This document shows positions 5,860 to 37,173 of a stretch of 64,000 nt of DNA, piece by piece. Every line of letters begins with the position of its first letter. Position 1 is the first letter of the stretch. The position numbers and the translations under genes are program-made. Location of the stretch: IMG/VR virus record IMGVR_UViG_3300022848_000005. One strand, written 5' to 3'. The stretch comes from a virus (Duplodnaviria > Caudoviricetes). The notes beneath the pieces are model-generated. The model did not search any database and had not been told where the DNA came from. It saw only the letters and a list, made by a program, of their open reading frames with translations.

Positions 5860-6219
5860 ATGGCATTTTTACCAACATCAGCAAACGCAAGAGAACAATC
5901 GCAAGGCAACGCCGTAGTTGCTGGCGAGATTGCAATCTTAACACAGCGTGTACTAATCGCAATTAGTTCGGGTGTGTTTACTATTACTGCCACAAGTGCA
6001 ACCACTATTACTATTAACGGTACCACTATTACTGGCAGTGTAATGACCAACGCTGATGCAACAGGTAGAGAATATTACACAGCCTGGCAAGGCACAACGA
6101 CAGATGCAGTAAAAACCGAGCAGATGACAGAAGTTATCTCGCATTTTCAAAAACTAGGATATGCTATTGTCCGCAAATCAACAACAGGTACTGAGCTATA
6201 TTGGCAAATGTCCTGGTAA
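5860..6219 (+). CDS. Small Thr-rich protein, probably virion structural
   Basis: ATAAATA at 5836-5842 and AAGGA RBS upstream. Confidence 0.5.
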   Translation: MAFLPTSANAREQSQGNAVVAGEIAILTQRVLIAISSGVFTITATSATTITINGTTITGSVMTNADATGREYYTAWQGTTTDAVKTEQMTEVISHFQKLGYAIVRKSTTGTELYWQMSW

Positions 6220-6222
6220 TCG

Positions 6223-6897: not shown

Positions 6898-6925
6898 GTA
6901 AAATACATTAGTAAGGACTCCTAAC

Positions 6926-8509: not shown

Positions 8510-8518
8510 TAGATCAAA

Positions 8519-9064
8519 ATGATCTGGCAGCACCAAAAAATTTCAGAGTGCGTGAGTGATCTTCCTTTAGGCGCAAGATTCAAAAGAAAACATTTGATGA
8601 TGCACTACGGAAAACAGTCAGCCTATGGTCATATGCTCCTATAATAAACACCTGTATGGACTTTACGGGTCATAAGTCCTGGCCTGATCCCTGGGAACTA
8701 TTAGAGGACTCTGGCTATGATGAATTTGCTAAAGCTCTTGGTATGCTGTATACTTTGTTTTTAAGTGGACACGATGATCATAGCAGCTATGTTATAATAA
8801 TATTACTTAATTGGGTTATAGTAACATTTAAGCCGCATCTTTTGGATAGTATCCAAAAAAACTTGTATATAACCCACTATGTATTATTAATAGGGTTAAA
8901 CAGGGACCAGGGAAAATATTACTATATAGTATCTGTCAGACGATGGAAAATATATACTTAATTATGAGTGGGACAGTGTAGTAAATACTCAACAAATAGA
9001 TCCAGGGGTTAAAATAATGTACCAATACACTCCTCAAGATTTACATTTAGACCAATATATGTGA
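8519..9064 (+). pseudogene. Disrupted conserved hypothetical gene upstream of nrdA
   Basis: Pieces read MIWQHQK / RVRE*SSFRRKI...LWSYAP...WPDPWELL...ALGMLYTL / DDGKYILNY...DLHLDQYM. Joining them needs a frameshift at the A6 run (8535-8540), TGA 8557 read as Trp, and a frameshift near 8938. A likely 90-bp insertion lies at 8793-8882. Confidence 0.7.
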
Positions 9065-9071
9065 GGCATCA

Positions 9072-11366: not shown

Positions 11367-11379
11367 CCCGAGTGTAATT

Positions 11380-12510: not shown

Positions 12511-13373
12511 AGGTTGCTCGAGCGTTATTTGTTGCGTGGTATAGGATACCACACGCTTGTCTAAGTCTACAGTTTGATCACTATATCAAAGGTATAGATG
12601 AAACATACATATTCACAAATTGTGAAAATACTGAGGCTAACCCATTCTTAGATAGAGTTTTATCCAAGTATCTAGACACATCAAAATTTAAATATGTGTT
12701 TGATGGCGAAATGGATAGTCTATATCCCAGTGTGCGTAACTGGTGGATACCTGGTGATTATAGGAACAGTTGGTTGTACCAACAAGCATTAAAACTTGCC
12801 AGTTTAGATTACATAGATGCAGACGTAATCCTTATACAAGATCCAGATACATTCTGTATTAATCCATATAACTTGTGGGAAGGTGACCTACTTAAGTATT
12901 TTATACTACCCAACGAGACTCACAGTCTTGCTTACTACCAAACACTGCAAAATGCATTAGGTATTGAGAGACAAGTGCCACACAGTTTTGTTACAGAATT
13001 CATGCCAGTATATAAAGAGGACTGGCTAAGTCTCAAGCATGAGCTCATAGCAAGAAATAACTGCGATCCGTTTGATGCGATAATTAATAATGTTCCTGAG
13101 GATCCACTCAGTGTTCCTACTCCAAACATAAAATGGTTTAGTGAGTATGAGCTACTGGGTAACTGGATTATGACACAACGTGAAGTTGCTCTAATGGAAC
13201 AAAAACGTTATAGTTACACACATATAGACGATATTGCTAACACAACAGCGGAAGATCACAATTGTATATGTGATGCTTGTCCAAATTTAGAAGACAGTAT
13301 CGTATTTGACAATAACGAAGAAATAGTCATAAATTTTGATGAAATATTTGGAAAGGTTAAAAAATTCTTATGA
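12507..13373 (+). CDS. Glycosyltransferase-like protein (DUF6492-like)
   Basis: WLYQQALKLA, a D.D-type QDPD motif and FSEYELLGNW. Confidence 0.55.
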   Translation: MKVARALFVAWYRIPHACLSLQFDHYIKGIDETYIFTNCENTEANPFLDRVLSKYLDTSKFKYVFDGEMDSLYPSVRNWWIPGDYRNSWLYQQALKLASLDYIDADVILIQDPDTFCINPYNLWEGDLLKYFILPNETHSLAYYQTLQNALGIERQVPHSFVTEFMPVYKEDWLSLKHELIARNNCDPFDAIINNVPEDPLSVPTPNIKWFSEYELLGNWIMTQREVALMEQKRYSYTHIDDIANTTAEDHNCICDACPNLEDSIVFDNNEEIVINFDEIFGKVKKFL

Positions 13374-13630
13374 TAACAATGTACACAAAAGATCATTGCC
13401 CTTTTTGTCAGTATGCGAAAGCCTGGCTAGAGAAGGCAGATATCACATTCGAAGAGAAAAATATTAGTCATAGTCAAGAACTAAGTTCTTGGTTAAAGGA
13501 ACAGGGCCATAGAACAGTGCCACAACTATACGTAAAAGATACATTGCTGGTAGAAGGTGGTTACCAAGGACTAGCAAAGTTAGATGAAAACACAGTTAAA
13601 CAGAAAATTAAGGAAATAAATGCTAATTAA
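13370..13630 (+). CDS. grx: Glutaredoxin
   Basis: CPFC active site, TVPQ and GGY motifs; next to nrdAB. Confidence 0.92.
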   Translation: MITMYTKDHCPFCQYAKAWLEKADITFEEKNISHSQELSSWLKEQGHRTVPQLYVKDTLLVEGGYQGLAKLDENTVKQKIKEINAN

Positions 13631-22615: not shown

Positions 22616-23209
22616 ATGACTAAGTCGCAAAAGAAAGTTGGATTTGCACTGTTAATCGCATTTTTTATATCAGCGTTAATGTTTATTGGCTGGTTAATTA
22701 CTACGTCAGTGTTGGCACAAGAGTACACAGAAGATAACCCTCTTCAATTAGAAGATGGGACGGAACTAACAGGTGACATATTAGATATTACCCCACACCC
22801 TACCAGTAGATACGGCCAACTGGAGAACGACACCAAAGGCTGGCGACAAGTGGGTCATGTAGATAATAGACGATTGTATCTTAACATAGATAAAATTGAG
22901 AAAGTCACAATATATAGACACGTTTGGGTAATGTTTGAATTTACAGATGGTCCAAAAGTAATACCAGGATACGCCGTGGGTGTTATCAAAGTAGTTAGTG
23001 AAGCAACTATTGAGTGCTCAAGTGGGCTAGTGCAACCTTTGCGAGATTATTATGTTGACAAAGACTGGGTTATCAGAACACAAACAATTTATGAAACTGG
23101 ACAAGCAAGGAGTTTTGCTAAAGCCAAAGGCAGTATTGCATGGGCAATGAAAGCGGTGGCATGTCATGGTGCTTCAATAGAAGATGTACAGATAGGAAAA
23201 GGCGCATGA
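22616..23209 (+). CDS. Exported/membrane-anchored hypothetical protein
   Basis: N-terminal hydrophobic helix and a Cys pair. Confidence 0.5.
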   Translation: MTKSQKKVGFALLIAFFISALMFIGWLITTSVLAQEYTEDNPLQLEDGTELTGDILDITPHPTSRYGQLENDTKGWRQVGHVDNRRLYLNIDKIEKVTIYRHVWVMFEFTDGPKVIPGYAVGVIKVVSEATIECSSGLVQPLRDYYVDKDWVIRTQTIYETGQARSFAKAKGSIAWAMKAVACHGASIEDVQIGKGA

Positions 23210-23541
23210 ATGTAGTTTTTACTAAGGAATCGGCAGACAAGTTAGCGGAAACTTACACAGTATTACCGTTACCCCCAATCACACAAACAGAGGGAGAAAA
23301 AACTGTCACAGTGGAACCTCACGTTATTATAGACATGGATAAAGTACCATTGCAAGAAATATCAAGTCTAGAAGAATGGTGTGGTCTACACAGAGAGGTG
23401 GTTAAGAACCATATTAAACAGGATTATAGTTTTTGTGAACAAGCCATAAGTCATCTGATGGGGAAATTTAAAGGCGAACTAGACAGTTATTATAAACACA
23501 TACTAACAGAGGCGGGGAATTCATCTGATGATGTATATTGA
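23206..23541 (+). CDS. Conserved hypothetical protein
   Basis: ATGA-coupled start at 23206 (MNVVFTKESADKL). Confidence 0.55.
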   Translation: MNVVFTKESADKLAETYTVLPLPPITQTEGEKTVTVEPHVIIDMDKVPLQEISSLEEWCGLHREVVKNHIKQDYSFCEQAISHLMGKFKGELDSYYKHILTEAGNSSDDVY

Positions 23542-24782: not shown

Positions 24783-25439
24783 ATGAGATATACCAGATAT
24801 AAATTTCCATACCTTGACAATATAATCGATCCTGATGTTGACTTAGACAGTTTACACATTGTTTGGTCTGAGAAATATAAATCTAGGTTTGTGGTTGATT
24901 CAAAAAACCGTGCAAACCTGCCAGCCGAATACGCCTATAAAATACTTAGTGCAGACTTTTTGTCTTTTATACATAATGAGTTACCTTGGCAAATAAGTCA
25001 TTTAGAGATATATCCCTTACCACCCAACACAAATTGTGTTATTGTACAAGAGGTCGTCGAAGAAAACAGAAATAATATAGGGTTGTATATGACAACAGGT
25101 GGCGTGTCATGGAATATACATGACATAACTGGTTTTAGACGTCGACAGGTTAGTAGGCCAGACTATACAACAGAAGCATGGCCCACATTTTGTGCCTTTT
25201 CTAAACCAGTAACAGATGCTGAGCCATCTGACAAGTGGCTTGATAGTAGCGAAATGCCAATTTTAGAGACATATAAAAATTGTGGTTTTATAGGGAACGG
25301 TTCTGTTCCGCATTCGTTGCGCTCAGACAACTCAGAAAAATCTGTATTTTTTATAATATCGTTTGAGATTGCTTTTGATAATAATATACCATTGCTGTAT
25401 AAACAACTTGGTGATGTATTTAAAAAGTGGGCTATTTAA
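24783..25439 (+). CDS. Hypothetical protein (possible cupin-like)
   Basis: 218-aa ORF with a distal PHS motif. Confidence 0.4.
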   Translation: MRYTRYKFPYLDNIIDPDVDLDSLHIVWSEKYKSRFVVDSKNRANLPAEYAYKILSADFLSFIHNELPWQISHLEIYPLPPNTNCVIVQEVVEENRNNIGLYMTTGGVSWNIHDITGFRRRQVSRPDYTTEAWPTFCAFSKPVTDAEPSDKWLDSSEMPILETYKNCGFIGNGSVPHSLRSDNSEKSVFFIISFEIAFDNNIPLLYKQLGDVFKKWAI

Positions 25440-26625
25440 ATTTCCATCTTTCTCTAAACTGTTTCCCTGCATTACCTGGTAATGTGTTAACACTCCCCAG
25501 TTCACCATCTATTACTTTTAAGTCAGGGTGTCTTGCATAATGCTGTTGCTTATTCTGTAACAGATTATCCGCTATTTCAAAGTTATCCAATAGCTCTTGC
25601 CAACATATATCAAATAATGTATTATAAAAGTGATTAAAGTTATAATCTAAAATAGGCAACATTTCTAGATACATCCTACGTTTGTCTGTTGCTGACAAGT
25701 TACATATACTTTTTATCTGTTTAATTACCATATCTAATCTAATAGCGGGATCTGTTTCTGTATCGTAACTCTCATCAATAAATCCGTCAAATGTCTTAAA
25801 ACCATATGAACGTAAGTACTCTAAGTTGCCTGTACAGCCTAATAGCATAAACGGTTGTCTAGCAACGATAGGTTTAAATATTTTTTCGGTAAGATGATTT
25901 GTTTTTTCGTAAAAGCAGGTCTCACTGACTATATGCCAAAAACCACTTGTCCAGAGATCGTACTCTAGTTCAGCACTTGCATTGTCACGTAGGTAATTGG
26001 TCTTTTGTATCCTAAAAGTGGGACTACGCTCTGACATCTTTTTAATAAGTTTTTTATCTTGCTCTGAAATAAATGTGTTATTGTCATAGTCCTTAAGATT
26101 GTATGAAACAACACCTTCCCCTAACAGCCCTTGATCATACAGTTTTGCCACAAACAACGATCTATAAATTCTTGATTCAGAGCACAGGTTATTTAAACTT
26201 ATATAACTTGCTCCTTGACTGACATCGACCCTGGGGGAAAATTTTGCACTTCTAAACCAGTCAAGACTAGCAAATGCATGATAAAAATAATACCATTTAA
26301 TTAAGTTATTCTTGTTACAAAATGCATCTAACAAGGGATTATTAACCTCGCTAGTTGCCCATATATTATACTTTAAATCCCACCTGCCATCTTGTAGTTT
26401 ACGCACGACGTCATACATACTTTGCGGTATCTGCGTACTAATCCCAAAAGGTTCTTGGTCATAAAAATACACATCTTCAAGTTGAAACAGTGAAGAATCT
26501 GGATACTTTAGCATGTCGTTATTTGATTCACACGTATCAAAGCTCTTTAAAGCATGCCCTTGTAAATGCTTATTTGATAACAAGTTGGCGTATAGGATGT
26601 CATAATGGTGGTCAATATTAAACAT
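25432..26625 (-). CDS. Putative glycosyltransferase (exostosin/GT-B-like phage family)
   Basis: HIVSETCFY...HLTEKIFKPI...PFMLLG...LRSYGFKTF...DESYD; paralog of 32020..33141. Confidence 0.55.
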   Translation of the reverse strand: MFNIDHHYDILYANLLSNKHLQGHALKSFDTCESNNDMLKYPDSSLFQLEDVYFYDQEPFGISTQIPQSMYDVVRKLQDGRWDLKYNIWATSEVNNPLLDAFCNKNNLIKWYYFYHAFASLDWFRSAKFSPRVDVSQGASYISLNNLCSESRIYRSLFVAKLYDQGLLGEGVVSYNLKDYDNNTFISEQDKKLIKKMSERSPTFRIQKTNYLRDNASAELEYDLWTSGFWHIVSETCFYEKTNHLTEKIFKPIVARQPFMLLGCTGNLEYLRSYGFKTFDGFIDESYDTETDPAIRLDMVIKQIKSICNLSATDKRRMYLEMLPILDYNFNHFYNTLFDICWQELLDNFEIADNLLQNKQQHYARHPDLKVIDGELGSVNTLPGNAGKQFRERWKFK

Positions 26626-26673: not shown

Positions 26674-27135
26674 TTGAGGATAAAAGTGAAGTACCTATTA
26701 ATGTTTTTATTTATGGCCTCAGTGGCATCTGCAGACAATTTAACGTTTAATTATAAGAGCCCTGCGTTTACAGGAAACGGGTATAGTGCGCATGTGCTAA
26801 CTATTGAACAGTTAGAGTCTAATAGAAGAACTGAAAACGATAAAAAAGCAAAGGCTTCGTCTGATGAATCAGAGCGAGATTTGCGAGCCACAAATACCTG
26901 GAAGTTTCAGAATAACCTGGAATCTAGGATCTACAGTCAGCTCAGTAAGCAAATTAGTGATAGCCTTTTTGGTGAGGCGGCGGCGGCAGCTGATGCTGAA
27001 GGAATAGTAACAACACCGTTTGGTGACACAGTAGCATGGTCTCGTATTGATGGTGTTATATCTGTAACAGTGTCTGACAGTAATGGGTCGATATTATCCA
27101 CATTTTCTGTACCTGTAGGAGACTTTTCTTTCTAA
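26674..27135 (+). CDS. csgF: CsgF-like curli assembly factor
   Basis: Signal peptide, then LTFNYKSPAFTGNGY...IEQLE (CsgF N-terminal F.NP.F.G motif); directly upstream of csgG. Confidence 0.75.
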   Translation: MRIKVKYLLMFLFMASVASADNLTFNYKSPAFTGNGYSAHVLTIEQLESNRRTENDKKAKASSDESERDLRATNTWKFQNNLESRIYSQLSKQISDSLFGEAAAAADAEGIVTTPFGDTVAWSRIDGVISVTVSDSNGSILSTFSVPVGDFSF

Positions 27136-27136
27136 T

Positions 27137-28027
27137 ATGAAAATCTTGATGATGTTAATGGCAACACTGTTAGTTTCAGGATGTGCAACTGTCGCTGGTA
27201 AAACATCCTTTGAAGCACCTACAATTGTACAGAGCCAAGACGAAATGTTTTATAATATCCCGCCTCCTGCACAAGGACCTATATACATTGCTGTTTATTC
27301 GTTTGAAGACAAAACAGGTCAACGTAAACCCAGTGAGCGTTTTTCAAACATATCTACAGCAGTAACACAGGGGTCGGTTGAATGGGTAATTAAAAGTCTT
27401 AAAGAAGTAGGCAACGGTGAGTGGTTTAAGGTTATTGAGCGTGTTGGCTTAGACAACCTAACTAAAGAGAGACAGATTATTAGGCAACAAAGACAAGCAG
27501 TTGACGATCAAAGTACACTTAAGCCATTAAAATATGCAGGAATTTTACTGGAAGGTGCTATAGTAGGGTACGATAGTAATATAAAAACAGGCGGTAGTGG
27601 TGCAAGATATTTAGGAATAGGATTACACCAGGAGTATAGGGAGGATGTAGTAACAGTTGCGATGCGAGTTATTTCTACTCAGACTGGTGAGGTATTAGTG
27701 GCAGTTACTGCTAGTAAGACTATTATAAGTTATGGCACTAGTCTATCAGCATTTAGATTTATTGATATGGGAACACGTGCCGTAGAGATAGAAGCTGGTA
27801 ACTACACAAACGAGCCTACCACAGTTGCAGTTCAACGAGTTATTGACGCCGCAGTAATAGAAATGATTATGCAAGGCAAAGCAAATGGGTACTGGGACTT
27901 TAAAAACTCAGAGGTCACTGTATCATCTGACAGAATAGAAAATGTGTCAAAACAGCTGTCAGAGGTCGAAATGTTACAAGAAGAGTATGAAAAACAGCTA
28001 AAACTAATAGAAAAGAACCCACTTTGA
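27137..28027 (+). CDS. csgG: CsgG curli secretion channel lipoprotein
   Basis: Lipobox LVSGC; IAVYSFEDKTGQRKP, STAVTQG, FKVIERVGLDNLTKERQIIR and LEGAIVGYD motifs. Confidence 0.92.
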   Translation: MKILMMLMATLLVSGCATVAGKTSFEAPTIVQSQDEMFYNIPPPAQGPIYIAVYSFEDKTGQRKPSERFSNISTAVTQGSVEWVIKSLKEVGNGEWFKVIERVGLDNLTKERQIIRQQRQAVDDQSTLKPLKYAGILLEGAIVGYDSNIKTGGSGARYLGIGLHQEYREDVVTVAMRVISTQTGEVLVAVTASKTIISYGTSLSAFRFIDMGTRAVEIEAGNYTNEPTTVAVQRVIDAAVIEMIMQGKANGYWDFKNSEVTVSSDRIENVSKQLSEVEMLQEEYEKQLKLIEKNPL

Positions 28028-28133
28028 AATAGTGCTATGTATTTATTTGTGCAGTATTATTTAAATAGCAATAAGTGTTATATCATCACTATGATCTGAT
28101 ATGTGTGGCTACATGGCCAAGGGAAGAGGAAAA

Positions 28134-28775
28134 ATGAAAATTTTAAGAACTATTGTAGGTGCAATATTACTGATAACTTGTGGCACGGTTTTTGCGAATG
28201 ACGTGTATATTGATCAGGCAGGTGATAGTTCAACAATCACAGTTATACAACAGAACGGGACTAACACAGTAAACTCGTCGGGAGATGCCGCAACACTCAG
28301 TGGTGATAGTATTACATTAAGTATTACCCAAGACGGTAATTTGAATAATGCAGACATTGAATTAGAAAATAGCGCAACTTCATCAAATGTTGATATTGAT
28401 GTTCTGGGTAGCAGTAACGAAACTAACGTTAGTGTTGACGGTGCATCCAGTACAACTGTTGATATTGACATTACGGGTGATACAAACTGGGCAACAGTTT
28501 GTGGATCTAACGACAGTGCATCAGGGGTTGCAATGACTTGTACAGGCGGTATTACTGACAGTACAACTTCAAATACTATTTCGATAACAGGTGATACCAA
28601 CGCTGTTAACATTGAAGCAACAGGTGCAAGTCAAACTAACACAGTAACTATTGGAGCAGATTCGTTAGACCTAAGCGATGCTAATACTGTTGACATCTTA
28701 AATGATGTTACAGGTTCAAATGTTATTCTTAACATCGACGGGCAAGACAACGATGTTGACATCACAGTTCAGTAG
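28134..28775 (+). CDS. Secreted curlin-repeat/beta-solenoid protein (CsgA/B-like)
   Basis: Signal peptide (VFA|ND), NDVYIDQAG, then repeated N/D-x-I-x-I-x-G-x-x-N units. Confidence 0.75.
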   Translation: MKILRTIVGAILLITCGTVFANDVYIDQAGDSSTITVIQQNGTNTVNSSGDAATLSGDSITLSITQDGNLNNADIELENSATSSNVDIDVLGSSNETNVSVDGASSTTVDIDITGDTNWATVCGSNDSASGVAMTCTGGITDSTTSNTISITGDTNAVNIEATGASQTNTVTIGADSLDLSDANTVDILNDVTGSNVILNIDGQDNDVDITVQ

Positions 28776-29850
28776 GACTCTATTTGCTGTAACATTTCTT
28801 ATATCCTCTACAGTATTTGCAAAAGGTATAGGGAATGTTACAGAACAAACTGGGCCTGCGGAGATAAGCAGAGCAAAATCAAAACTACCTAGCGAAAAAG
28901 GTGCTGACATCTTTATGCAAGATGTTATACAGACAGCAAAGTCAAAAGTAGGCATAACTTTTGCAGATAACACCAAAATCCGCATTATCGAACAAAGTAA
29001 ATTAATAGTAGATGAATTTATCTACGATCCAGGGAGTGAAACGCCAGGTAAACTAGGCATGAAAGTAGTGTTAGGCACAGTACGCTACGCATCTGGTAAA
29101 ATAGCAAAAGACAATGCTGAGAATGTTAACATTCAAACACCAACTGCTACTATTGCTGTTCGAGGAACAGACTTCACAATGACTGTAGACGAGATAGGAC
29201 GTAGTCTTGTTATTCTACTACCTAGTTGCCCAACTGACAATGAAGTAGACTGTTATGTGGGGGAGATTGAAGTTCTAACAGACGTGGGTGCTGTTATTAT
29301 GAATCAGGCATTTCAGGCTACATTGGTAACTAGCAGTGATTCAATGCCTACTGAACCAACAATTGTTAACATTACAGAAGCATTGATTGACAATTTTCTT
29401 ATTATTAGTCCACCAGAAGAAGTTAGGATAGCTCAAGAAGAGCAAGAGCGCAGTAAAGATCCACTAGACAAAGACTTATTAAAATTTGATGATTTAGACA
29501 CTAACCAGTTAGACGAAGAAGATGAACTAGCAAATAATTACGAACTTGACATAAATTACTTAGATTTTGATTTCTTAGGCAATATGCTGGACTTGACCAC
29601 AGTGGACTTAAACAGAGACCAATTGGAAACAAACGAGACGCTACCAACAATACAACAGTACAGTTGGATATTATGGTATGCAAACGAAGAAGAGATTTTT
29701 ATGAGAAGTGAGAGACCACCTCATGTTGCTGAGATAAGTCTGGAACGAGTTATGGAAGGCAACGTAAATATTACACAGGATGACGTCCCAGCTCAAATAC
29801 AAGTTCAAGGTGGTTCAGGAACAGAAATAACTATTATACAGAGTCAATAA
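28753..29850 (+). CDS. FecR-domain protein
   Basis: Signal or anchor; D.IQT.K....ITF.D.T......SKL; I.TPTATIAVRGTDF motif. Confidence 0.85.
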   Translation: MLTSQFSRTLFAVTFLISSTVFAKGIGNVTEQTGPAEISRAKSKLPSEKGADIFMQDVIQTAKSKVGITFADNTKIRIIEQSKLIVDEFIYDPGSETPGKLGMKVVLGTVRYASGKIAKDNAENVNIQTPTATIAVRGTDFTMTVDEIGRSLVILLPSCPTDNEVDCYVGEIEVLTDVGAVIMNQAFQATLVTSSDSMPTEPTIVNITEALIDNFLIISPPEEVRIAQEEQERSKDPLDKDLLKFDDLDTNQLDEEDELANNYELDINYLDFDFLGNMLDLTTVDLNRDQLETNETLPTIQQYSWILWYANEEEIFMRSERPPHVAEISLERVMEGNVNITQDDVPAQIQVQGGSGTEITIIQSQ

Positions 29851-31076
29851 TGTTTAAAAGACTTGTCTTAATACTCTTTAGTTGGTTAATATTTGTTGCT
29901 ACTCCTACATGGGCAGATTTAGATTATACCTCATATTACATAACCTCATATGCACCCAGTCTTGAATTTCCATACTACGATAACGTAGCAGGCTATAATA
30001 GTGATGGATCGAACTCAAGTCCATCTTATCTAAGCAGTGTACTCAGCACAGGAACGATGTCAGGCATAAGTGGGTATAATTGGGGTAGTGTATTAGACAG
30101 TGGTCGTTCAGATTATGTAGCATTAGAAATAACAGGATACATCACATGGCCAGGCACAGCAGGTGTATCAACAACTGTGTACTTTGGTGTAAGAGCAGAT
30201 GATGGCGTGTTTATGAACATAGATGGCACTAACGTAATCCAGGACTGGCAACAACAAGGTGGTGCCACTTGGAATGCTCAAGGTTCTATTACACTTACGG
30301 GCGGGCAAGAATATCCAATTACAGTTTGGTGGTACGAGTGGGGAGGCGGTGCAGAACTTGATATCAATTACAGTTTAACTGATTATCAGTATTCTAATCA
30401 AGCAAACATACCCACAAGTTGGCTCAGTACAACTTCTACATCGAGTAGTTCTTCAGCAACGCCATCATATTCTTCTGGGCCAACTTCTGCACAACAAACT
30501 AGAATAAACTCTAATAGATCAGCTATAAGTTCAGGCTCTAGTAACGATATAGATATTAATATAACAGGTGATAGCAATGATATTTTTATTTCGCAGGCAG
30601 GTGAACCAAGTCTTTTGTTGCTAAATGTTACAGGAAACCTTAACGACATCGACATAGATCAAGATGCTAGTACGTCAGCAACCAGCTATGGGCATTATAC
30701 AGAAGCTGAAATTTTAGGCGACAGTAATATACTAGACTTAACTCAAACAGGCAGTGGGAACCATACAGCATTTATTGATGTTAACGGAGATAGTAACTCA
30801 GCAACACTGATTCAGAAAGATGGGGGCAACCATTATCTACAATTGGATTTAATTGGTGACAACAATACTGCTACAATAACACAGCAAGGTGCTGGTGACC
30901 ATGCGGCTACTGTTGAACTAACAGAGAGCGGTGGTAGTTGGACATTTAGTCTAGATCAGAACGGCACCAACGATAAAACATATAGTTTACCACATAGTAT
31001 GAGTGATGAATCAACAACAAGCGGAACATGCTATACCAGTGCAGGATGCTCATTGACTGTAACACAAGGCGACTAA
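29850..31076 (+). CDS. Secreted PA14-domain plus curlin-repeat protein
   Basis: Signal peptide; PA14 motif (ITGYI...FGVRADDG...IDG..VI.DW...YPI.VWWYE.GG); Ser-rich linker; C-terminal GDSN.A.L.Q.G.GNH repeats. Confidence 0.8.
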   Translation: MFKRLVLILFSWLIFVATPTWADLDYTSYYITSYAPSLEFPYYDNVAGYNSDGSNSSPSYLSSVLSTGTMSGISGYNWGSVLDSGRSDYVALEITGYITWPGTAGVSTTVYFGVRADDGVFMNIDGTNVIQDWQQQGGATWNAQGSITLTGGQEYPITVWWYEWGGGAELDINYSLTDYQYSNQANIPTSWLSTTSTSSSSSATPSYSSGPTSAQQTRINSNRSAISSGSSNDIDINITGDSNDIFISQAGEPSLLLLNVTGNLNDIDIDQDASTSATSYGHYTEAEILGDSNILDLTQTGSGNHTAFIDVNGDSNSATLIQKDGGNHYLQLDLIGDNNTATITQQGAGDHAATVELTESGGSWTFSLDQNGTNDKTYSLPHSMSDESTTSGTCYTSAGCSLTVTQGD

Positions 31077-31238: not shown

Positions 31239-31739
31239 ATGAACGAACCAAGACAATACAAGTACGTGAGCACAAAAGAATACGTTGATCAGTTTCCGTG
31301 TGCATATAGACAATGGAGAGCTGACAGTCACTGCAACGTAATACACGGTTATGCGTTTACAATGCGTTTCTTTTTTGGAACAGACGACCTAGATGTTAGA
31401 AACTGGGTTGCCGATTACGGCGGATTAACGGAACTAAAGCAAATATTACAGGATCAGTTTGACCATACGCTACTGGTTGCTGAAGACGACCCAGAAATAG
31501 AAATGTACAAGCAACTGCAAGCAAAGAAGTTGGCTAAACTAACTATCTTACCAAAACTTGGTTGCGAAGGCCTTGCAGACCAACTGTACAAATATGTAAA
31601 TGGTGTGTATATCCCAGACATGTGGGGGCAAAGCGAAGCAGATAGACTTTGGTGTTACAGAGTAGAAGTACGTGAAACACAAAGCAACATGGCTTGGCGT
31701 GAGGGACACAGAGAATGGAACGAGGACTTGTATGAGTAA
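31239..31739 (+). CDS. queD: 6-carboxytetrahydropterin synthase (QueD/PTPS)
   Basis: C...HGY, VADYGGL..LK..L.DQFDH, CEGLA..LY and VEVRET motifs. Confidence 0.88.
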   Translation: MNEPRQYKYVSTKEYVDQFPCAYRQWRADSHCNVIHGYAFTMRFFFGTDDLDVRNWVADYGGLTELKQILQDQFDHTLLVAEDDPEIEMYKQLQAKKLAKLTILPKLGCEGLADQLYKYVNGVYIPDMWGQSEADRLWCYRVEVRETQSNMAWREGHREWNEDLYE

Positions 31740-31893: not shown

Positions 31894-32023
31894 TTTATTA
31901 GTGGATATGGATTCGATGAAATTGGACGACAGACAGTTTCATGTATAAGGAGGTGACACCATATTGATTCCGGATGGTGCGTTTCATCGAGTCCATAACA
32001 CTAGTGACGATGGTGTTCTTTGA
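31894..32023 (+). pseudogene. Cupin-domain gene remnant
   Basis: FISG.G / MKLDDRQFHV*GGDTILIPDGAFHRVHNTSD; frameshift plus in-frame TAA at 31946. Confidence 0.65.
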
Positions 32024-33141
32024 AAATATCTGAACACAAAATATTTAATTTTGTTACCCCAACCAGTGCAATAAATGTTGCTAGTGACTGGTTAGGCCAC
32101 GATCACGTAAACTGGCAGTTTACTGATGATTACACAGAAGCACTAGCACAACCGTGTAAGATTGCTATGATGCCTGCATTGTTTAATTGTCCAGGCAGTT
32201 ATACGTATAGAGAGAAGTTTAAAAAATACGACTTTAGCAAGTTTGATCTGGTGGTGTTAAGTGATATAGAATGTCATAGCCAAGACTATATTATAGAAGA
32301 ATGCATTCAACCTGCTGGAATTAAAAACTATCTGGTTGCGGCTGGTGGGGTTACAACTGAACTAACAGACCCCGACTTTATATACAGACCTTGGTGGATG
32401 TTTCACCATCGTAACCTAAACTCTATTCAAGTGAGTAGTTATAATAAGCGTGAGTTTCTGTTTGATGCGTTATTGGGATCCCGTAAATTGCATCGTAGTT
32501 ATGTAATGGCACGTTTACAACAGCGTCCAGATTTACTCTCAAACTCTATTGTAAACTATAGAGACACGTTTATTAATCATTGGGGAGACAACCCTAAGTA
32601 CTTGTACGATCATGTACGAAAAACACTAGATGGCAAAGAGTTGCTGTGGCCTTACGTAAGCAAAAACTTTACAGAAGAACAACCACAAGATTTAGAACCA
32701 CATCAAATAAGTGAAGTCACACCCTGGGACATATACGAAAAGACACACTACAGTATATGTTGTGAAAGTTTTGGCAACAACCCAGATGACACAAATCCTG
32801 GACCTTTCTTCCTGACAGAGAAGACTGCTAAGATGTTTATGGCGCAACGTATGTTTATAATGTTTGCACCACAGCATACGTTACGATTCATAAAAAGTCT
32901 AGGATTTGAAACTTTTGACTCGGTTATAGATGAAAGTTATGACGACATAGCAGATCCTAGAAAAAGATTTGATAGAGCATTTGACCAAGTTGAATATCTA
33001 GCTAAACAAGATCCTGCAGGAGTCTACGAAAAAGTTATGTTTATAACACAATATAACTTTTTTATGTTTATGGACCTTATTAAAAAGACCAAAGAAGCCA
33101 TGCTTAACAAGTTGCTACAAAAAATAGATAACATAGAGTAA
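32020..33141 (+). CDS. Putative glycosyltransferase (paralog of 25432..26625)
   Basis: YSICCES...FLTEKTAK......FIMF......IKSLGFETF.SVIDESYD. Confidence 0.55.
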   Translation: MKISEHKIFNFVTPTSAINVASDWLGHDHVNWQFTDDYTEALAQPCKIAMMPALFNCPGSYTYREKFKKYDFSKFDLVVLSDIECHSQDYIIEECIQPAGIKNYLVAAGGVTTELTDPDFIYRPWWMFHHRNLNSIQVSSYNKREFLFDALLGSRKLHRSYVMARLQQRPDLLSNSIVNYRDTFINHWGDNPKYLYDHVRKTLDGKELLWPYVSKNFTEEQPQDLEPHQISEVTPWDIYEKTHYSICCESFGNNPDDTNPGPFFLTEKTAKMFMAQRMFIMFAPQHTLRFIKSLGFETFDSVIDESYDDIADPRKRFDRAFDQVEYLAKQDPAGVYEKVMFITQYNFFMFMDLIKKTKEAMLNKLLQKIDNIE

Positions 33142-33148
33142 ATACGTT

Positions 33149-35179
33149 ATGTTCAAAAAAATATTGCTGAGTCCCTGGACAGCAATAATCACATTATTAA
33201 TATGCGCATATATTAAAATGTCGGATCCAGGATTTGTGGAAAGTGTTAGGCTACGTTACTTCGATACTCTAATTACAAGCCAAGAACCAGTACAAAATAA
33301 CATACACACTGTTAATATAGACGACCTTGCACTAACCGAAATAGGCGCATGGCCCGTGCCCAGAGACTATTATGCAGACTTAATTGTAGACCTATATAAC
33401 AGGAATGCAGGGCTGGTTGTGTTAAATGTTCTCATGCCAGAAGCATCAGATCAGGACCTAGCACTAGCAGAGGCAATGGAGTCTTATCCTGTCATACTAA
33501 CAAGTGTACCTAGCCAATGGAGCAAAAACACACCTAAGAAACCAGGTGCAGTGATTTTAAATCCAGAGTACATGAACACAATTATCAACTATCCTGGCAT
33601 AATAGCAAACACTGAAGAGCTAGAACAACGTGCATACGGTGTTGGTATTGCTAACACATTACCAGAGATAGATGGTGTTACTAGACGCATTCCATTAGTT
33701 GCCGCAGTGGGCGAAAACTTATACCCAGGCGTACCGTTAGAGATATTAAGATCAGCCGCAGGAGACACAACCTTTCAGATCAAACTGTTTGAATACGGTG
33801 TTGAGAAAATGCGTATACCAGCCTTTGGTACTATAACTACTGATGCACTGGGACGTATCTGGATAGACTGGAGCCAACAAAGTTATAAACATAGTCTAAC
33901 TAATCTGCCAGAAGATTTTGGTGGAGGCGTAGTTATTATTGGCCCAACAGCGGCAGGTACTAACCAGCCTGTAGCAACAGCATTAGGTGGCAGTTGGCCA
34001 CATGAAGTACAAGCCGCAGTAGTAGGTACAATGTTCAATGGTGTAAACATTGTACGTGCTGATTGGGCAGACGGTGCAGAACTACTGGCAATTGTAGTAT
34101 TAGGCTTGCTTGCTATTTTTATATCAAGTTGGACATATGGCTTTGTGCCTGTAATAGCGGTTGTTGTAGGCATTTATTATGCGGCTCAATACTATTACAC
34201 AGAACAACGACTATTGTTTGACATAACAGCAATTATATTTGCCTTGGTGTTAACTTATGTGCATGCATATACAGTTAAGTTCTTAAGCGAATTTTATCAG
34301 AAGCAACAGATTAAGAAACAGTTTGGAACTTACATCAGTAAAGAGCTGGTAGCAGAATTACAGAAGCATCCTGAGAAGATGCAGTTAGGTGGTGTTACCA
34401 GAGTCATGACATTCTTGTTTTGTGATATCAGAGGATTTACCCCTATTAGTGAACAGTATAAAACAGATCCACAAGGTCTAACACGACTTATTAATAAGTT
34501 CTTAACTCCCATGACTAACATAATTATGGAGCATAGGGGAACCATAGATAAGTATATGGGAGACTGTATTATGGCGTTCTGGAATGCGCCACTGGAGATA
34601 GAAGGTCATGAACAAAAAGCAGTACTGGCGGCGCAAGACATGGTTGATGGAGTTAGGCGACTTAATGAAGAACTATCCAAAGATAATCTACTACCTATTA
34701 ATATTGGTATTGGTATTAACACTGGTGCCTGCGTCGTGGGTAATATGGGTTCTGATCAAAGGTTTGATTACAGTGTACTCGGTGATGCTGTCAATCTTGG
34801 AAGCAGGCTTGAAGGCCAATCCAAATCGTACGGAGTCATCACAATCATTGGTGAAGAAACAGCAAAGTCGGTAACCGACACACAATTAATCGAACTAGAC
34901 TTAATTGCTGTTAAAGGCAAAGAAGATCCAGTAACAATATACACTCCTGTAACTTCATCATTTGATGTCGAGATAAAGAAACATCAGGAGTATCTCGACG
35001 CATATAGAAACAGAGACTGGAACGAAGCTAAGAGGATTGCTGGCGGTAATAAGTTGGCCTTTTCAGGAGAACTTGAACAGTATTATGTGTTAATGAGCGA
35101 GCGTATTACGGAACTTGAAAAGTCTGACATTAACGACTTAGAGATCTGGGACGGAATTTTTAGAGCGCAAACTAAGTAG
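33149..35179 (+). CDS. CHASE2-sensor class III adenylate cyclase
   Basis: CHASE2 motifs (V.IDD.AL..IG.WP.PR, DGVTRRIPL); 3 TM helices; FCDIRGFT, TIDKYMGDCIMAFW and YSVLGDAVNLGSRLEG motifs. Confidence 0.92.
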   Translation: MFKKILLSPWTAIITLLICAYIKMSDPGFVESVRLRYFDTLITSQEPVQNNIHTVNIDDLALTEIGAWPVPRDYYADLIVDLYNRNAGLVVLNVLMPEASDQDLALAEAMESYPVILTSVPSQWSKNTPKKPGAVILNPEYMNTIINYPGIIANTEELEQRAYGVGIANTLPEIDGVTRRIPLVAAVGENLYPGVPLEILRSAAGDTTFQIKLFEYGVEKMRIPAFGTITTDALGRIWIDWSQQSYKHSLTNLPEDFGGGVVIIGPTAAGTNQPVATALGGSWPHEVQAAVVGTMFNGVNIVRADWADGAELLAIVVLGLLAIFISSWTYGFVPVIAVVVGIYYAAQYYYTEQRLLFDITAIIFALVLTYVHAYTVKFLSEFYQKQQIKKQFGTYISKELVAELQKHPEKMQLGGVTRVMTFLFCDIRGFTPISEQYKTDPQGLTRLINKFLTPMTNIIMEHRGTIDKYMGDCIMAFWNAPLEIEGHEQKAVLAAQDMVDGVRRLNEELSKDNLLPINIGIGINTGACVVGNMGSDQRFDYSVLGDAVNLGSRLEGQSKSYGVITIIGEETAKSVTDTQLIELDLIAVKGKEDPVTIYTPVTSSFDVEIKKHQEYLDAYRNRDWNEAKRIAGGNKLAFSGELEQYYVLMSERITELEKSDINDLEIWDGIFRAQTK

Positions 35180-35181: not shown

Positions 35182-35964
35182 CTACTTAAACTCTATACTT
35201 TCTAATTCTAGCGGTACTGGGTACGATAGAAACTTGTTTAACAAGTCTAAATTTAACACTTGTCCTATAATCGGATAACCAGTATACAGTTCTATCTTAT
35301 CTAACCCATGTTGCTCTACAAACTCAGGAGCATGTTTAGTAAAATCAGATGTCAGTTTGTCTATATCGGCAAACTCTTCATAATTAATAGTAGCAATGTT
35401 TATACCTGGTTTAACAAACGTATGAAACTTACAGGTTTGACTGATGTTTTTGTAATCGTTTTCTAGGTAAATTTGCAAAGGCCCGTGACCCACAAACGGA
35501 TTCTGCAACTTTAAATCTCCCACAGACATGCTAGTACTAAATTCTATATCGACACTGTCGAACCCGCTATCGTTGTACCACTCTATTTGTAGCCAACCCA
35601 ACCTACTAGGTGCTGTGTCGTCTTGTAGTAAATGTAACCCGTAATGCAAGTCGTGTACAGTGTTATCTAGGTGTTCTGGTACACTATCAAAATCTTTGCC
35701 AACAAGACGTTCTATGTCCTTGTGCATTCGAGCAGTGTTCTCTAATGATAAGTTACTGGCATCCCATGACCAATTAAAATGTTTGTTAACCTGTTCTGCC
35801 AGTTCGCTGAGATATGCAGGTGTAAATTTTAGCCTATCTCGGTAAATGGGGAACTGTTGTTGATAGTTTGTCTGCACTAAATCGTAGTATTTTGTACCAA
35901 GTTCGGTATTAAAAATGTTACAATGTAAGGCAGGAAAGTTTTTATACTTTATGCTTAATTCCAT
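35182..35964 (-). CDS. Hypothetical protein
   Basis: 260-aa ORF, coupled with 35955..36587. Confidence 0.55.
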   Translation of the reverse strand: MELSIKYKNFPALHCNIFNTELGTKYYDLVQTNYQQQFPIYRDRLKFTPAYLSELAEQVNKHFNWSWDASNLSLENTARMHKDIERLVGKDFDSVPEHLDNTVHDLHYGLHLLQDDTAPSRLGWLQIEWYNDSGFDSVDIEFSTSMSVGDLKLQNPFVGHGPLQIYLENDYKNISQTCKFHTFVKPGINIATINYEEFADIDKLTSDFTKHAPEFVEQHGLDKIELYTGYPIIGQVLNLDLLNKFLSYPVPLELESIEFK

Positions 35965-36587
35965 AAAAAACGACCGTAGTTTTCTCCTACAAATCCAAAG
36001 TAATTAGTTTTATATTTGTTTTGTTCTTTCATGTGTAAGTGATGCCATTCGTCTTTGCGTTTAAGTAGTTGTTTCGCACCATCTTCCCAGTCTGTATTCA
36101 GTATTACTGGTTCGTATTGTTGTCGATATTGTTCTATCTCATCGTAGTTATCACTGTCATACTCCCAGTGTAATATTTCAAACATGTCACCTTGTCTACT
36201 TATGTACTCCAAACTAATATCTAGTCCCCATCTAGGACGTTGTTGTAGCACACGATGTATTCTACCGTCTTGTTCTGCTAAACGCCATAATTGTTTTCTG
36301 GCTTCTCCCTGATACCCTCTCCTATATAGTACGTTGCTGTGATTTAACACAACTCCAAACTTAGTTTCTGCCTGGATAAACCAGTCCGCTTTTTCGCTGG
36401 GATAACGTTCGCTGTAGATATCACCTGTATTTGCTTTAACAAGTGCTATCTCTAATTCGACAAGATCAAAACTGTTTGGATCCATTAGGTCCGTGGGATT
36501 GTCAGAAAGCATTGATGCATCACAGGGTTTTGTGTAATATCCCACGGGGTCGAGTGGTTTACTGTAAACCAGTTCTAATGTTGTCAC
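35955..36587 (-). CDS. Hypothetical protein
   Basis: 210-aa ORF in the - strand operon. Confidence 0.55.
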   Translation of the reverse strand: MTTLELVYSKPLDPVGYYTKPCDASMLSDNPTDLMDPNSFDLVELEIALVKANTGDIYSERYPSEKADWFIQAETKFGVVLNHSNVLYRRGYQGEARKQLWRLAEQDGRIHRVLQQRPRWGLDISLEYISRQGDMFEILHWEYDSDNYDEIEQYRQQYEPVILNTDWEDGAKQLLKRKDEWHHLHMKEQNKYKTNYFGFVGENYGRFLWN

Positions 36588-36877
36588 TTCTGCGTACTGC
36601 CGTCTTTCTCTATTTCTCTTATCCTGTCTTCATTTTTACGTCTCTGTTCTTCTTCACGCATCTGTAATACAACATTTAGTTTTTGATTGAGCCTAATTAA
36701 GTCATTGTCAAGCATACGAATTCTATCAATCAACGCAATCAGCGTCGTTTGTGCTTCGCTTAGTACAGGCTTAACTTGTTCGGTCGCCCACTTCCAGACG
36801 TAAACTACAAAATATCCAAGACCAACTGCCGCAACTACGGGAAATCCGTATTGCTTTATAAGTTCTACTATATCCAT
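36584..36877 (-). CDS. Small single-TM coiled-coil protein, paralog B
   Basis: GFPVVAAVGLGYFV...IALIDRIRMLDNDLIR. Confidence 0.65.
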   Translation of the reverse strand: MDIVELIKQYGFPVVAAVGLGYFVVYVWKWATEQVKPVLSEAQTTLIALIDRIRMLDNDLIRLNQKLNVVLQMREEEQRRKNEDRIREIEKDGSTQK

Positions 36878-37155
36878 TAATCTCTCCTGGCATCATTTTT
36901 CCCATCAGCTCGTGCAATGCGATCTAAGTCAGGTTTGACATGTAGAGCGTTTGACATAAGAGTATCAATTCTTATGACGTCGTGATTCATTGTACGCACA
37001 CGGTTATCTAAGGCGTTAATAATACCAGTTAATCCTCGCACACTGCCCATAACTCCCTCAAGTATGAAACGTAGGCTTAGAAAAACAAAATATCCACCAG
37101 CGATAGCCGCCGCTATTGGAAAACCAAGCTCCCCAATTACTTCGAATATTTCCAT
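36877..37155 (-). CDS. Small single-TM coiled-coil protein, paralog A
   Basis: GFPIAAAIAGGYFV...INALDNRVRTMNHDVIR. Confidence 0.65.
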   Translation of the reverse strand: MEIFEVIGELGFPIAAAIAGGYFVFLSLRFILEGVMGSVRGLTGIINALDNRVRTMNHDVIRIDTLMSNALHVKPDLDRIARADGKNDARRD

Positions 37156-37173
37156 TTGTAATTCCCTCACAAG

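Follow-up and report, generated by a model that had tools for sequence, protein, structure and literature searches.

The five genes at positions 26,674 to 31,076 of the stretch analysed (the window, 64,000 nucleotides of a tailed virus of the Caudoviricetes, IMG/VR record IMGVR_UViG_3300022848_000005), together with a downstream cyclase gene, are the already published marine phage curli-FecR-cyclase module, here with a PA14 head of sugar-binding type. The phage is a large marine one, and the module lies in a variable part of its genome that is rich in auxiliary genes; the module consists of a curli-type secretion pore in the outer membrane, two subunits of a fibre, a FecR-type protein in the periplasm and a membrane-bound adenylate cyclase. 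The best explanation of the whole is a phage type VIII (curli) module that would combine fibre export with co-sensing by FecR and CHASE2 leading to cAMP, a reading to which we give about an even chance. Pfam and PHROG domain calls and, for CurA, a family profile confirmed the five genes, all on the plus strand, and the region comprises the following features.

26674..27135, plus strand: csgF-like gene, 153 aa (Pfam CsgF 1.4e-13, phrog_35372 9e-37)
27137..28027, plus strand: csgG, outer-membrane lipoprotein pore, 296 aa (Pfam CsgG 1.1e-54)
28134..28775, plus strand: CurA, secreted curlin-repeat protein, 213 aa (recognised by its family profile)
28753..29850 (ORF 28702-29850), plus strand: periplasmic FecR-domain protein, 365 aa (Pfam FecR 3.6e-10, phrog_37870 2.8e-91)
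29850..31076, plus strand: CurB, secreted protein with PA14 head and curlin solenoid, 408 aa (Pfam PA14 2.6e-10, Curlin_rpt 2.6e-11)
31239..31739, plus strand: QueD-like 6-pyruvoyl-tetrahydropterin synthase, an insert outside the module (Pfam PTPS 2.3e-13, phrog_2389)
32020..33141, plus strand: 373-aa protein, an insert, paralogue of the minus-strand gene 25432-26625
33149..35179, plus strand: receptor-type adenylate cyclase, 676 aa (Pfam CHASE2 2.4e-32, Guanylate_cyc 4.1e-18, phrog_35576 5e-217)
36584..37170, minus strand: two paralogous 97-aa proteins, the 'HK' genes of Wittmers et al. (phrog_18771 1.6e-34 and 1.4e-31)

These calls, with the CurA family profile, bear out the gene identities given in a first-pass annotation of the sequence (csgF-like, csgG, curlin, FecR, PA14 plus curlin), and the CHASE2 cyclase that it invoked is real. 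Its view that only csgF and csgG had been reported before does not hold, as FecR, both curlin genes and the cyclase were all published in 2022: the arrangement 'HK'-CsgF-CsgG-CsgA/B-FecR-CsgA/B-AC was described in SAR11 podo- and myophages by Wittmers et al. 2022 (PMC9599517), who also published the environmental expression and abundance of the viral module. The pelagiphage viral T8SS (curli) likewise appears in Zaragoza-Solas et al. 2020 (PMC7029224), and neither of these two papers mentions CHASE2, PA14 or lectin-type heads.

Gene coupling and the secretion pore

The csgF-like gene and csgG are separated by a single nucleotide, the CurA gene overlaps fecR by 23 nt, and fecR and the CurB gene overlap at TAATG, in keeping with the earlier description of one coupled operon; because a 106-nt AT-rich gap lies between csgG and the CurA gene, however, the block is tightly packed but a single transcript is not provable. 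The most likely starts are ATG 28134 for CurA, where a GGAAGAGG ribosome-binding site lies upstream (the ORF list starts at 28101), and ATG 28753 for the FecR protein, and each of them yields a clear signal peptide.

In the CsgF-like protein the signal peptide ends ...VASA|DN and is followed by the conserved N-terminal motif TFNYKSPAFTGNGYS. The family profile matches E. coli CsgF weakly (E 0.04), and this match falls exactly on the signal peptide and the TFQFRNPNFGG CsgG-binding peptide. CsgG is homologous to its E. coli counterpart across the full length (residues 2-258 align to 3x2r at 4e-53) and carries an additional 40-aa coiled-coil-like C-terminal tail. The lipobox, LVSG|C, is present as first annotated, but the channel motifs, also called intact, are only partly conserved: the constriction motif QFKPYPASNFSTAV of E. 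coli reads QRKPSERFSNISTAV here, with Asn55 retained, Phe56 replaced by Ile and Tyr51 lost, which counts against the best explanation. Compared with the E. coli csgBAC-csgDEFG system, the phage module shares a CsgF family protein with the N-terminal CsgG-binding motif and curlin-repeat subunits, whereas its constriction residues are altered, CsgC and CsgD are absent, one subunit bears a large non-curlin head, and a FecR protein and a cyclase are added. CsgE was also absent from the module in both the domain calls and the locus comparison, a further point against the best explanation.

The two curlin subunits

Mature CurA begins NDVYIDQAGDSS... and has no Pfam match in this window, while 12 of 27 CurA homologues match Curlin_rpt, and the family profile matches the solved curlins 8c50 (1.9e-6) and CsgA 8enq (4e-5). 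CurB consists of a signal peptide, a PA14 domain (about 60-175, with DDG at 117-119), a disordered, Ser/Thr-rich linker (180-230), curlin repeats (232-379) and a C-terminal Cys pair; in its AlphaFold2 model the mean pLDDT is 71 and that of the solenoid about 90. Foldseek matched the PA14 fold to the RsgI sensor domains (6qe7), the Flo1/Flo5/Epa1 lectins and the PA14 domain of a Marinomonas RTX adhesin. A new observation is that the CurB family couples a conserved curlin solenoid to an N-terminal head that can be swapped: it may be PA14, discoidin or of an unknown type, or be missing altogether. PA14 is found in five of the 30 homologues compared, the window's own included. A PA14 domain that is already folded cannot get through CsgG, so it would need to fold extracellularly, and this also counts against the best explanation.

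The FecR-domain protein

Behind its signal peptide the FecR protein has a FecR-type beta domain (about 27-205) with an invariant Cys pair, an acidic, disordered linker (about 209-295) and a small six-strand beta domain (306-363; mean pLDDT of the AlphaFold2 model, 72). Foldseek related it to the cell-surface-signalling domain of PupR (6ovk, 4e-4) and to E. coli FecR residues 112-236, and its C-terminal domain to 5ix9 (TM by target 0.73, E 0.03). Thus the FecA-FecR-FecI and PupB-PupR systems share with it the fold of the periplasmic beta domain, as well as the idea that a domain in the periplasm can serve as the relay leading from a protein of the outer membrane to the inner membrane. In contrast to these systems, the phage protein lacks, in sequence and AlphaFold2 model, the N-terminal anti-sigma domain and the transmembrane helix of iron-signalling FecR; the phage locus has no ECF sigma factor or TonB-dependent transducer, and the presumed inner-membrane partner is the cyclase. 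With bacterial FecR homologues the alignment stops at about residue 221, and the acidic linker and small C-terminal domain are confined to curli-linked FecR proteins; this build, a free periplasmic FecR domain extended by two curli-specific parts, is also new here.

The absence of CsgE, also recorded in PMC9599517, may be read differently: the FecR protein would take the place of CsgE on CsgG, as its adaptor or cap in the periplasm, and would signal to the cyclase when unsecreted curlin builds up, which would make this a quality-control loop and not a case of outside-in sensing. The protein is indeed periplasmic, with a signal peptide, and hhalign matches its C-terminal end, end-to-end, to the pair of curlin strands at the C terminus of CurA (E 0.0022), but that alignment has 13% probability, Foldseek revealed no CsgE fold likeness, and alphaproteobacterial curli function without CsgE (PMC9599517, citing Dueholm 2012). 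We regard such a loop as quite unlikely.

The cyclase and the inheritance of the module

The cyclase comprises one transmembrane helix, a periplasmic CHASE2 domain, three further transmembrane helices, a class III cyclase domain and a C-terminal tail. Its catalytic domain aligns to P. aeruginosa CyaB (3r5g) at 3.7e-34 and retains FCDIRGF, DKYMGDC and DYSVLGDAVNLGSRLE, so that at the sequence level the catalytic motifs are intact. Module cyclases form a single clade with 100% SH-aLRT support, within which that of the window branches deep (at most 50% identity to any other).

Relatives of the FecR protein were found on 313 viral contigs. csgG was present in all 69 viral loci that extend 3 kb or more upstream of fecR, and the cyclase in all 45 that extend 4.5 kb or more downstream, although the latter figure is biased since the loci were selected through FecR; Wittmers et al. 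found FecR and the cyclase missing from some phage curli regions (PMC9599517). In FecR-selected loci, csgF, csgG, a curlin, the FecR protein and the CHASE2 cyclase are strictly co-inherited, and the cyclase thus does accompany the csg genes in relatives, in line with the reading of the first-pass annotation. The module is annotated, in the same gene order, in Pelagibacter phage HTVC008M (KC465899) and Methylophilales phage Melnitz (MZ577097). Relative to the pelagiphage T8SS module, the six core genes are alike in order and orientation, the proteins are 35-50% identical and every export signal is retained; the window differs by its deep-branching cyclase, the PA14 head on CurB, the QueD-like and unknown genes before the cyclase, and the two small 'HK' genes, which are inverted and relocated past it. 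Curli genes are missing from the known hosts of those relatives that have been isolated (PMC9004378, PMC9599517).

In bacteria, FecR and CHASE2 genes repeatedly occur as neighbours with no csg genes (19 of the 67 loci reached via FecR, at least six of the 30 reached via CHASE2), and in two Caulobacteraceae assemblies the module forms a low-GC island; both observations are new here. Examples from the literature are the Burkholderia 'BiofilmReg' operon (RR-LysM/FecR-CHASE2 histidine kinase-DUF4136) and P. aeruginosa PA4035/PA4036 (PMC5192318). In common with the phage module, the gene of an exported FecR-domain protein adjoins that of a membrane protein with periplasmic CHASE2, but the bacterial pairs lack csg genes, the acidic linker and the C-terminal domain, and their outputs vary (histidine kinase or cyclase). 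Bacteria thus provide an independent precedent for FecR domains partnered with CHASE2 sensors, and a FecR to CHASE2 relay is plausible; the complex prediction for FecR:CHASE2 scored 0.00, which on the tool's own scale speaks neither for nor against it. In S. meliloti, outer-membrane NsrA is needed for an external signal to reach the inner-membrane CHASE2 cyclases CyaK/CyaD1/CyaD2 (PMC7529298), a precedent for an outer-membrane protein feeding such cyclases, though NsrA and CsgG are different proteins, the pathway is not known to involve a FecR protein, and the system is cellular rather than viral.

The same bacterial pairs (PMC5192318) suggest that FecR and the cyclase could sense an environmental or envelope cue of their own, independently of any fibre, with cAMP regulating host metabolism or type VIII expression, as Wittmers et al. 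proposed, and the curli genes being co-transferred output rather than input. FecR, AC and 'HK' are regarded as putative regulators in PMC9599517, and the two inserted, unrelated genes uncouple the window's cyclase from the operon, which also counts against the best explanation. However, co-inheritance with csgFG is complete among the loci examined, the extra linker and C-terminal domain, missing from bacterial CHASE2-linked FecR, speak for a physical link with the secretion system, and five related genomes yielded no phage cNMP-binding protein, cNMP receptor or transcription factor. A fibre-independent pair therefore seems rather unlikely.

Proposed mechanism

Under the preferred reading of fibre export coupled to cAMP signalling, Sec would export the products during infection, and the lipoprotein CsgG would form the outer-membrane pore with CsgF as its cap. 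CurA and CurB would cross the pore unfolded and stack as a curli-like beta-solenoid fibre displayed on the infected cell, to which CurB would contribute its changeable head, here PA14, on the flexible Ser/Thr linker, the head possibly binding a glycan or other surface ligand. The FecR protein may stay in or span the periplasm as co-sensor of the CHASE2 domain, so that the state of secretion, or of the fibre and its ligand, would be converted to cAMP by the inner-membrane cyclase. Its acidic linker and small C-terminal domain are likely the adaptor to the pore or the curlins, since both occur only in curli-linked FecR proteins, and, as the five genomes yielded no cNMP-binding protein of the phage, the targets of cAMP would be receptors of the host. 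Candidate benefits to the phage are aggregation or 'sibling capture', exclusion of other phages and host reprogramming. Against the best explanation, OM43 cells infected with Melnitz did not clump in the work of Buchholz et al. (PMC9004378).

Displaced and inserted genes

Each 97-aa 'HK' protein has one transmembrane helix and a coiled coil. Their genes lie inverted 1.4 kb past the cyclase in the window, while in HTVC008M, in Melnitz and in most of the copies borne by MAGs their homologues immediately precede csgF. Among named Atlas clusters, YvrJ and BhlA-type holins come nearest to the 'HK' proteins (0.85-0.87, a lead only).

That position just 5' of csgF in most relatives, the holin-type lead and the altered constriction of CsgG agree with proposals (PMC7029224, Zaragoza-Solas 2020; PMC9599517, Wittmers 2022; PMC9004378, Buchholz 2022) that CsgG/CsgF is an open channel for the uptake of nutrients, cofactors or iron compounds, or a gated pore timing lysis. 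We consider this very unlikely: such a pore would need no substrates, yet two conserved curlin-repeat proteins with signal peptides are always present; an outer-membrane lipoprotein could not depolarise the inner membrane; the FecR protein is not built like that of iron signalling; and the small membrane proteins, displaced in this window, have no Pfam holin or kinase match even at E 10.

The QueD-like gene occurs at the same position only in one close relative (L003) and is absent from HTVC008M, Melnitz and most loci. The 373-aa protein, which has no Pfam or PHROG match, shares the motif GF.TFD..IDESYD with the product of 25432-26625, and its nearest named Atlas clusters are GT10 fucosyltransferases (0.80, a lead only).

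Gene content of the curli block and its published counterparts

The gene order csgF-csgG-curlin-FecR-curlin-cyclase found in the window is already published, being annotated in the Pelagibacter phage HTVC008M and the Methylophilales phage Melnitz. The whole unit of 'HK' (two small membrane-protein genes), CsgF, CsgG, CsgA/B, FecR, second CsgA/B and adenylate cyclase (AC) was described in podo- and myophages together with trees for CsgG, CsgF, FecR and AC (Wittmers et al. 2022, PMC9599517). According to that study, phage curli modules were present at each of the 65 GOV2.0 ocean stations and accounted for about 0.1% of assembled viral proteins; evidence that they are expressed was also given. 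Phages carrying the modules infect the most abundant marine bacteria, and the cells of these hosts themselves lack curli genes. Proposed roles comprise 'sibling capture' for the pelagimyophage 'curli operon' (Zaragoza-Solas et al. 2020, PMC7029224), a lysis pore, in a study where no clumping was seen (Buchholz et al. 2022, PMC9004378), and defence against superinfection, sibling capture or import of cofactors (PMC9599517). CHASE2, PA14, lectins and signal peptides are not mentioned in PMC9599517, and a literature search returned no publication combining CHASE2, phage and curli. The window shares the CsgF-CsgG-curlin-FecR-(curlin)-AC set and order with the pelagiphage module for type VIII (curli) secretion (T8SS), but has two inserted genes and a displaced 'HK' pair. 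It is a divergent copy, with its PA14 head, its insert and a rearranged small membrane-protein gene pair.

Genes of the curli block and the associated small membrane-protein pair in the window
26674-27135, +: csgF (Pfam CsgF, 1.4e-13)
27137-28027, +: csgG (Pfam CsgG, 1.1e-54)
28101-28775 (ORF; likely start ATG 28134), +: curlin-like gene curA (Curlin_rpt and curlin structures at family level)
28702-29850 (ORF; likely start ATG 28753), +: FecR-domain gene (Pfam FecR, 3.6e-10)
29850-31076, +: PA14-plus-curlin gene curB (Pfam PA14, 2.6e-10; Curlin_rpt, 2.6e-11)
31239-31739, +: QueD-like gene (6-pyruvoyl-tetrahydropterin synthase, phrog_2389)
32020-33141, +: 373-aa gene with no Pfam or PHROG match, a paralogue of 25432-26625 (-)
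33149-35179, +: CHASE2 class III cyclase (Pfam CHASE2, 2.4e-32; Guanylate_cyc, 4.1e-18)
36584-36877 and 36877-37170, -: paralogous 97-aa proteins (phrog_18771) with a coiled coil and a single transmembrane helix each

The genes are tightly packed, with a gap of 1 nt between csgF and csgG, an overlap of 23 nt between the curlin-like gene and fecR when the latter starts at ATG 28753, and a TAATG overlap between fecR and the PA14-curlin gene. A 106-nt AT-rich gap lies upstream of the curlin-like gene, where a GGAAGAGG site precedes the likely start. With corrected starts, signal peptides were recognized in all four soluble products (...VASA-DN, ...TVFA-ND, ...TVFA-KG, ...PTWA-DL; hyphens mark cleavage). 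Sigma-70-like promoters numbered 38 against an expectation of 38.3, terminators 6 against 7.0 and copies of the T4 late motif TATAAATA 6 against 7.75; none is enriched, and these scans yield no transcript boundaries. CsgF, CsgG, FecR and the cyclase fall into PHROG phage families of unknown function, and phage genes elsewhere in the window include NrdA/NrdB, DNA ligase and a tail-spike-like gene. The csgF, csgG, curlin, FecR and PA14-curlin genes named in the first-pass annotation were all confirmed.

Secretion pore and curlin subunits

Judged from sequence, the block holds a complete set of T8SS parts with their export signals. The alignment of CsgG to its E. coli counterpart spans residues 2-258 (4e-53), and a lipobox read from the sequence (LVSG-C) is as expected of an outer-membrane lipoprotein pore. 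The channel motifs had been called intact, which holds only in part: in the constriction loop, QRKPSERFSNISTAV aligned to QFKPYPASNFSTAV of E. coli CsgG, the Asn corresponding to Asn55 is kept, but Phe56 is replaced by Ile and Tyr51 is not kept; a Phe is present two residues before the kept Asn. In the CsgF family, a conserved N-terminal F-x-x-P-x-F-x-G corresponds, at a weak E of 0.04, to TFQFRNPNFGG, the peptide with which E. coli CsgF binds CsgG, and the CsgF of the window is counted as having this barrel-inserting N-terminal peptide.

The secreted curlin-like protein CurA of the window has no Pfam match of its own. Its identification as a curlin-repeat protein proved right at the family level, as 12 of 27 homologues match Curlin_rpt and the family profile matches two curlins of known structure, 8c50 (1.9e-6) and the CsgA of E. 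coli, 8enq (4e-5). Profiles and models together predict that the block encodes secreted curlin-repeat subunits of the CsgA/CsgB type. No csgE, csgC or csgD was found among the ORFs of the curli block or of 80 related loci, and their absence from the module was likewise stated previously (PMC9599517).

Exchangeable heads of the second curlin

For CurB, the secreted PA14-plus-curlin protein, an AlphaFold2 model was obtained (mean pLDDT 71, about 90 in the beta-solenoid) in which a PA14 sandwich is joined by a disordered Ser/Thr linker (residues 180-230) to a solenoid with some 13 strands. Besides its Pfam PA14 match, the head matches GLEYA (1.3e-4), and Foldseek relates it with probability 1.0 to the PA14 domain of RsgI sensors, the yeast Flo1/Flo5 and Epa1 lectins and the PA14 domain of the Marinomonas adhesin MpIBP. 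A DDG motif at residues 117-119 is a candidate counterpart of the Asp-cis-Asp calcium/sugar loop of these lectins. The curlin part is conserved (Curlin_rpt in 25 of 30 homologues), and the head is not conserved among the same 30 homologues.

Head types of CurB homologues (L numbers denote loci of relatives)
PA14-type head: window, L003, L057, L059, L069
F5/8 type C head: L047
Common head of unrecognised type: L029 and others
Short head of unrecognised type: L005 and others
Different head despite 80% identical FecR: L004
Headless: L013, L016, L030, L087

The comparison of the window gene (29850-31076) with its counterpart in L004 (9068-10405) points to recent swapping of heads, as the N-terminal heads are unrelated while the curlin domains are 74% and the FecR proteins 80% identical. 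That heads differ between relatives this close points to a role in surface recognition. The second curlin is a carrier of exchangeable heads, which may bind ligands.

Conservation of the module among phages

Querying IMG/VR with the FecR protein gave 313 contigs, from which 80 loci were kept. Synteny of csgF-csgG-curlin-fecR-CHASE2/AC across phages, the first check proposed for the module, was borne out: every one of the 69 loci that extend 3 kb or more upstream of fecR has csgG, and every one of the 45 that extend 4.5 kb or more downstream of it has the cyclase (41 downstream, 4 upstream of csgF). The module genes are thus strictly co-inherited in these FecR-selected loci, a sample that, being chosen through FecR, cannot tell how many curli regions are without FecR or cyclase; some such regions were reported by Wittmers et al. 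(PMC9599517). Close relatives are L003 and L004 (FecR 80% identical); L003 also carries the insert of QueD and the 373-aa gene. Rearranged relatives include L013/L014 (3201-4492), in which csgF-csgG is inverted and lies 2.8 kb from the curlin gene, and L056, L058, L068 and L070, in which the cyclase was relocated upstream of csgF.

In HTVC008M, Melnitz and most relatives, the phrog_18771 pair immediately precedes csgF; in the window it is inverted and displaced. Small membrane proteins of this type were labelled 'HK' (PMC9599517). They have no Pfam kinase or holin match even at E 10, and their only Atlas leads, YvrJ and Holin_BhlA, are sub-threshold. The kinase label finds no support here, a length of 97 aa being insufficient for such an enzyme, and neither does a holin label.

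FecR protein and receptor cyclase

The AlphaFold2 model of the FecR protein (48 sequences, mean pLDDT 72) shows three parts, namely a beta domain (27-205), a disordered acidic stretch (209-295) and a six-strand beta domain (306-363). Fold matches of the first of these are the PupR cell-surface-signalling domain (6ovk, 4e-4) and residues 112-236 of E. coli FecR; its Cys 159 and Cys 167 reach at least 90% conservation among the 48 aligned sequences and are invariant in a 12-sequence alignment. The third part is similar to 5ix9 (TM by target 0.73, E 0.03), an entry with the title 'cell surface anchoring domain'; we take 5ix9 to be the retention domain of the Marinomonas RTX adhesin and treat this as a lead only. 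The end of the family (...GG....ITI.Q.Q) looks like the final strand pair of CurA, but a profile comparison with the CurA family aligns only the last 42 columns (E 0.0022, probability 13%), too weak for a curlin repeat. The periplasmic FecR domain is shared with FecR-type anti-sigma regulators, whereas their N-terminal cytoplasmic domain and transmembrane helix are missing from the window protein, in which a cleavable signal peptide is directly followed by the FecR domain. As neither the anti-sigma domain nor the membrane helix is present, 'iron regulator' is a misnomer; genes for an ECF sigma factor or a TonB-dependent transducer were not found in the block.

The receptor cyclase is intact. 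Its catalytic domain aligns with P. aeruginosa CyaB (3r5g) at 3.7e-34 and keeps both metal-binding Asp, the substrate Lys and the Asn/Arg pair (FCDIRGF, DKYMGDC, DYSVLGDAVNLGSRLE), with Ser where class IIIb cyclases have Thr, and its CHASE2 domain lies between transmembrane helices. In a quick tree, to which long-branch warnings apply, the module cyclases form one clade (100% SH-aLRT) apart from bacterial FecR-adjacent CHASE2 cyclases, and the window cyclase branches deep, with at most 50% identity to any other.

Bacterial counterparts

A search with the FecR family alignment, covering a single genome for each species, yielded two classes of match. The full module was found in 13 loci, in 'MAGs' of at least five phyla. 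As evidence of a wide bacterial distribution, most of these copies are rejected, since they have phage-like flanks; they are probably mis-binned phage contigs. Flanks that are not phage-like were seen only in the Caulobacteraceae contigs L088 (82 kb) and L090, and the flanking genes found to be bacterial are those of L088 (CANGCO010000005.1), with HbpS-like, Vgb-lyase-like, metallophosphoesterase, amidohydrolase and acyl-CoA dehydrogenase genes as neighbours. There, csgF-csgG-curlin-curlin-fecR-CHASE2 cyclase occupies about 9 kb (4500-13500) at 46-53% GC versus 57-60% GC in the flanks. Only these two of 201 Caulobacteraceae genomes sampled carry the full-length FecR protein, and both cyclases nest among phage sequences in the tree. 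The Caulobacteraceae module looks like a horizontally acquired island, and assembly chimerism may be an alternative explanation.

The other 67 bacterial loci match the FecR domain only, at about 30% identity, with alignments ending by residue 221; csgG is missing from all of them, and a CHASE2 protein is encoded adjacently in 19. The CHASE2 domain is present in 190 of 301 Pseudomonadota genomes, and a FecR-domain ORF was found within 1.5 kb in at least 6 of the best 30 CHASE2 loci, a lower bound because the downstream flank is short. The pairing of FecR with CHASE2 therefore recurs outside the module; the same pairing is seen in the Burkholderia RR-LysM/FecR-CHASE2 kinase-DUF4136 operon and in PA4035/PA4036 (PMC5192318). 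In addition, perception of an external signal by CHASE2 cyclases of S. meliloti depends on the outer-membrane protein NsrA (PMC7529298).

Proposed mechanism

The first-pass annotation had envisaged a carbohydrate-binding fibre on the infected cell, sensed via FecR and relayed to the cyclase. The T8SS parts, the cyclase, their co-inheritance and the FecR-CHASE2 pairing elsewhere support this proposal in part, of which the fibre, the binding and the relay are what we infer. CurA and CurB would be secreted and assemble into a fibre whose CurB head binds a ligand. The FecR protein may be the periplasmic partner and co-sensor of CHASE2, tied to the pore or the fibre through an extra adaptor region that only curli-linked copies possess. 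The resulting cAMP would act on host receptors, as no cNMP_binding domain (PF00027) was found in five related phage genomes (HTVC008M, Melnitz and three large IMG/VR relatives). A complex prediction for CHASE2 (24-320) and mature FecR (24-365), made with custom alignments and without controls, gave 0.00 in both runs and counts neither way.

A bolder arrangement, to which we give little credence, is that the FecR protein forms a tether threaded across the envelope, from the periplasm to the fibre through the CsgG/CsgF channel. The disulfide-locked FecR domain would stay periplasmic on the CHASE2 sensor, the acidic linker of about 85 residues would thread the channel, and the small C-terminal beta domain, with the curlin-like strand pair at its end, would attach to the fibre, so that pulling or binding at the lectin-headed fibre would lead directly to cAMP. 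If true, the virus would encode a type of outside-in surface sensor that has been described neither from cells nor from viruses. The exchangeable heads, the non-iron FecR with its extra region and the island in two bacterial assemblies make concrete surrogate-host experiments possible.

Genes neighbouring the module

The QueD-like gene between the curlin genes and the cyclase probably belongs to the 7-deazaguanine pathway and not to the module. Between the cyclase and the small membrane-protein pair lie two overlapping genes, 35182-35964 (-, 260 aa) and 35955-36587 (-, 210 aa), with no Pfam or PHROG match. ORF 23140-23541 was considered as a free-standing copy of the cyclase tail, and the pairwise BLASTP match (E 0.036, 35 residues) is unconvincing. 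The curli block is bracketed by two paralogues in opposite orientation, 25432-26625 (-) and 32020-33141 (+), which share the motif GF.TFD..IDESYD and have no match in Pfam or PHROG. Homologues of this pair adjoin the module in L003, L004 and L014, and among named Atlas clusters GT10 fucosyltransferases come closest to the pair (0.80), a lead only.
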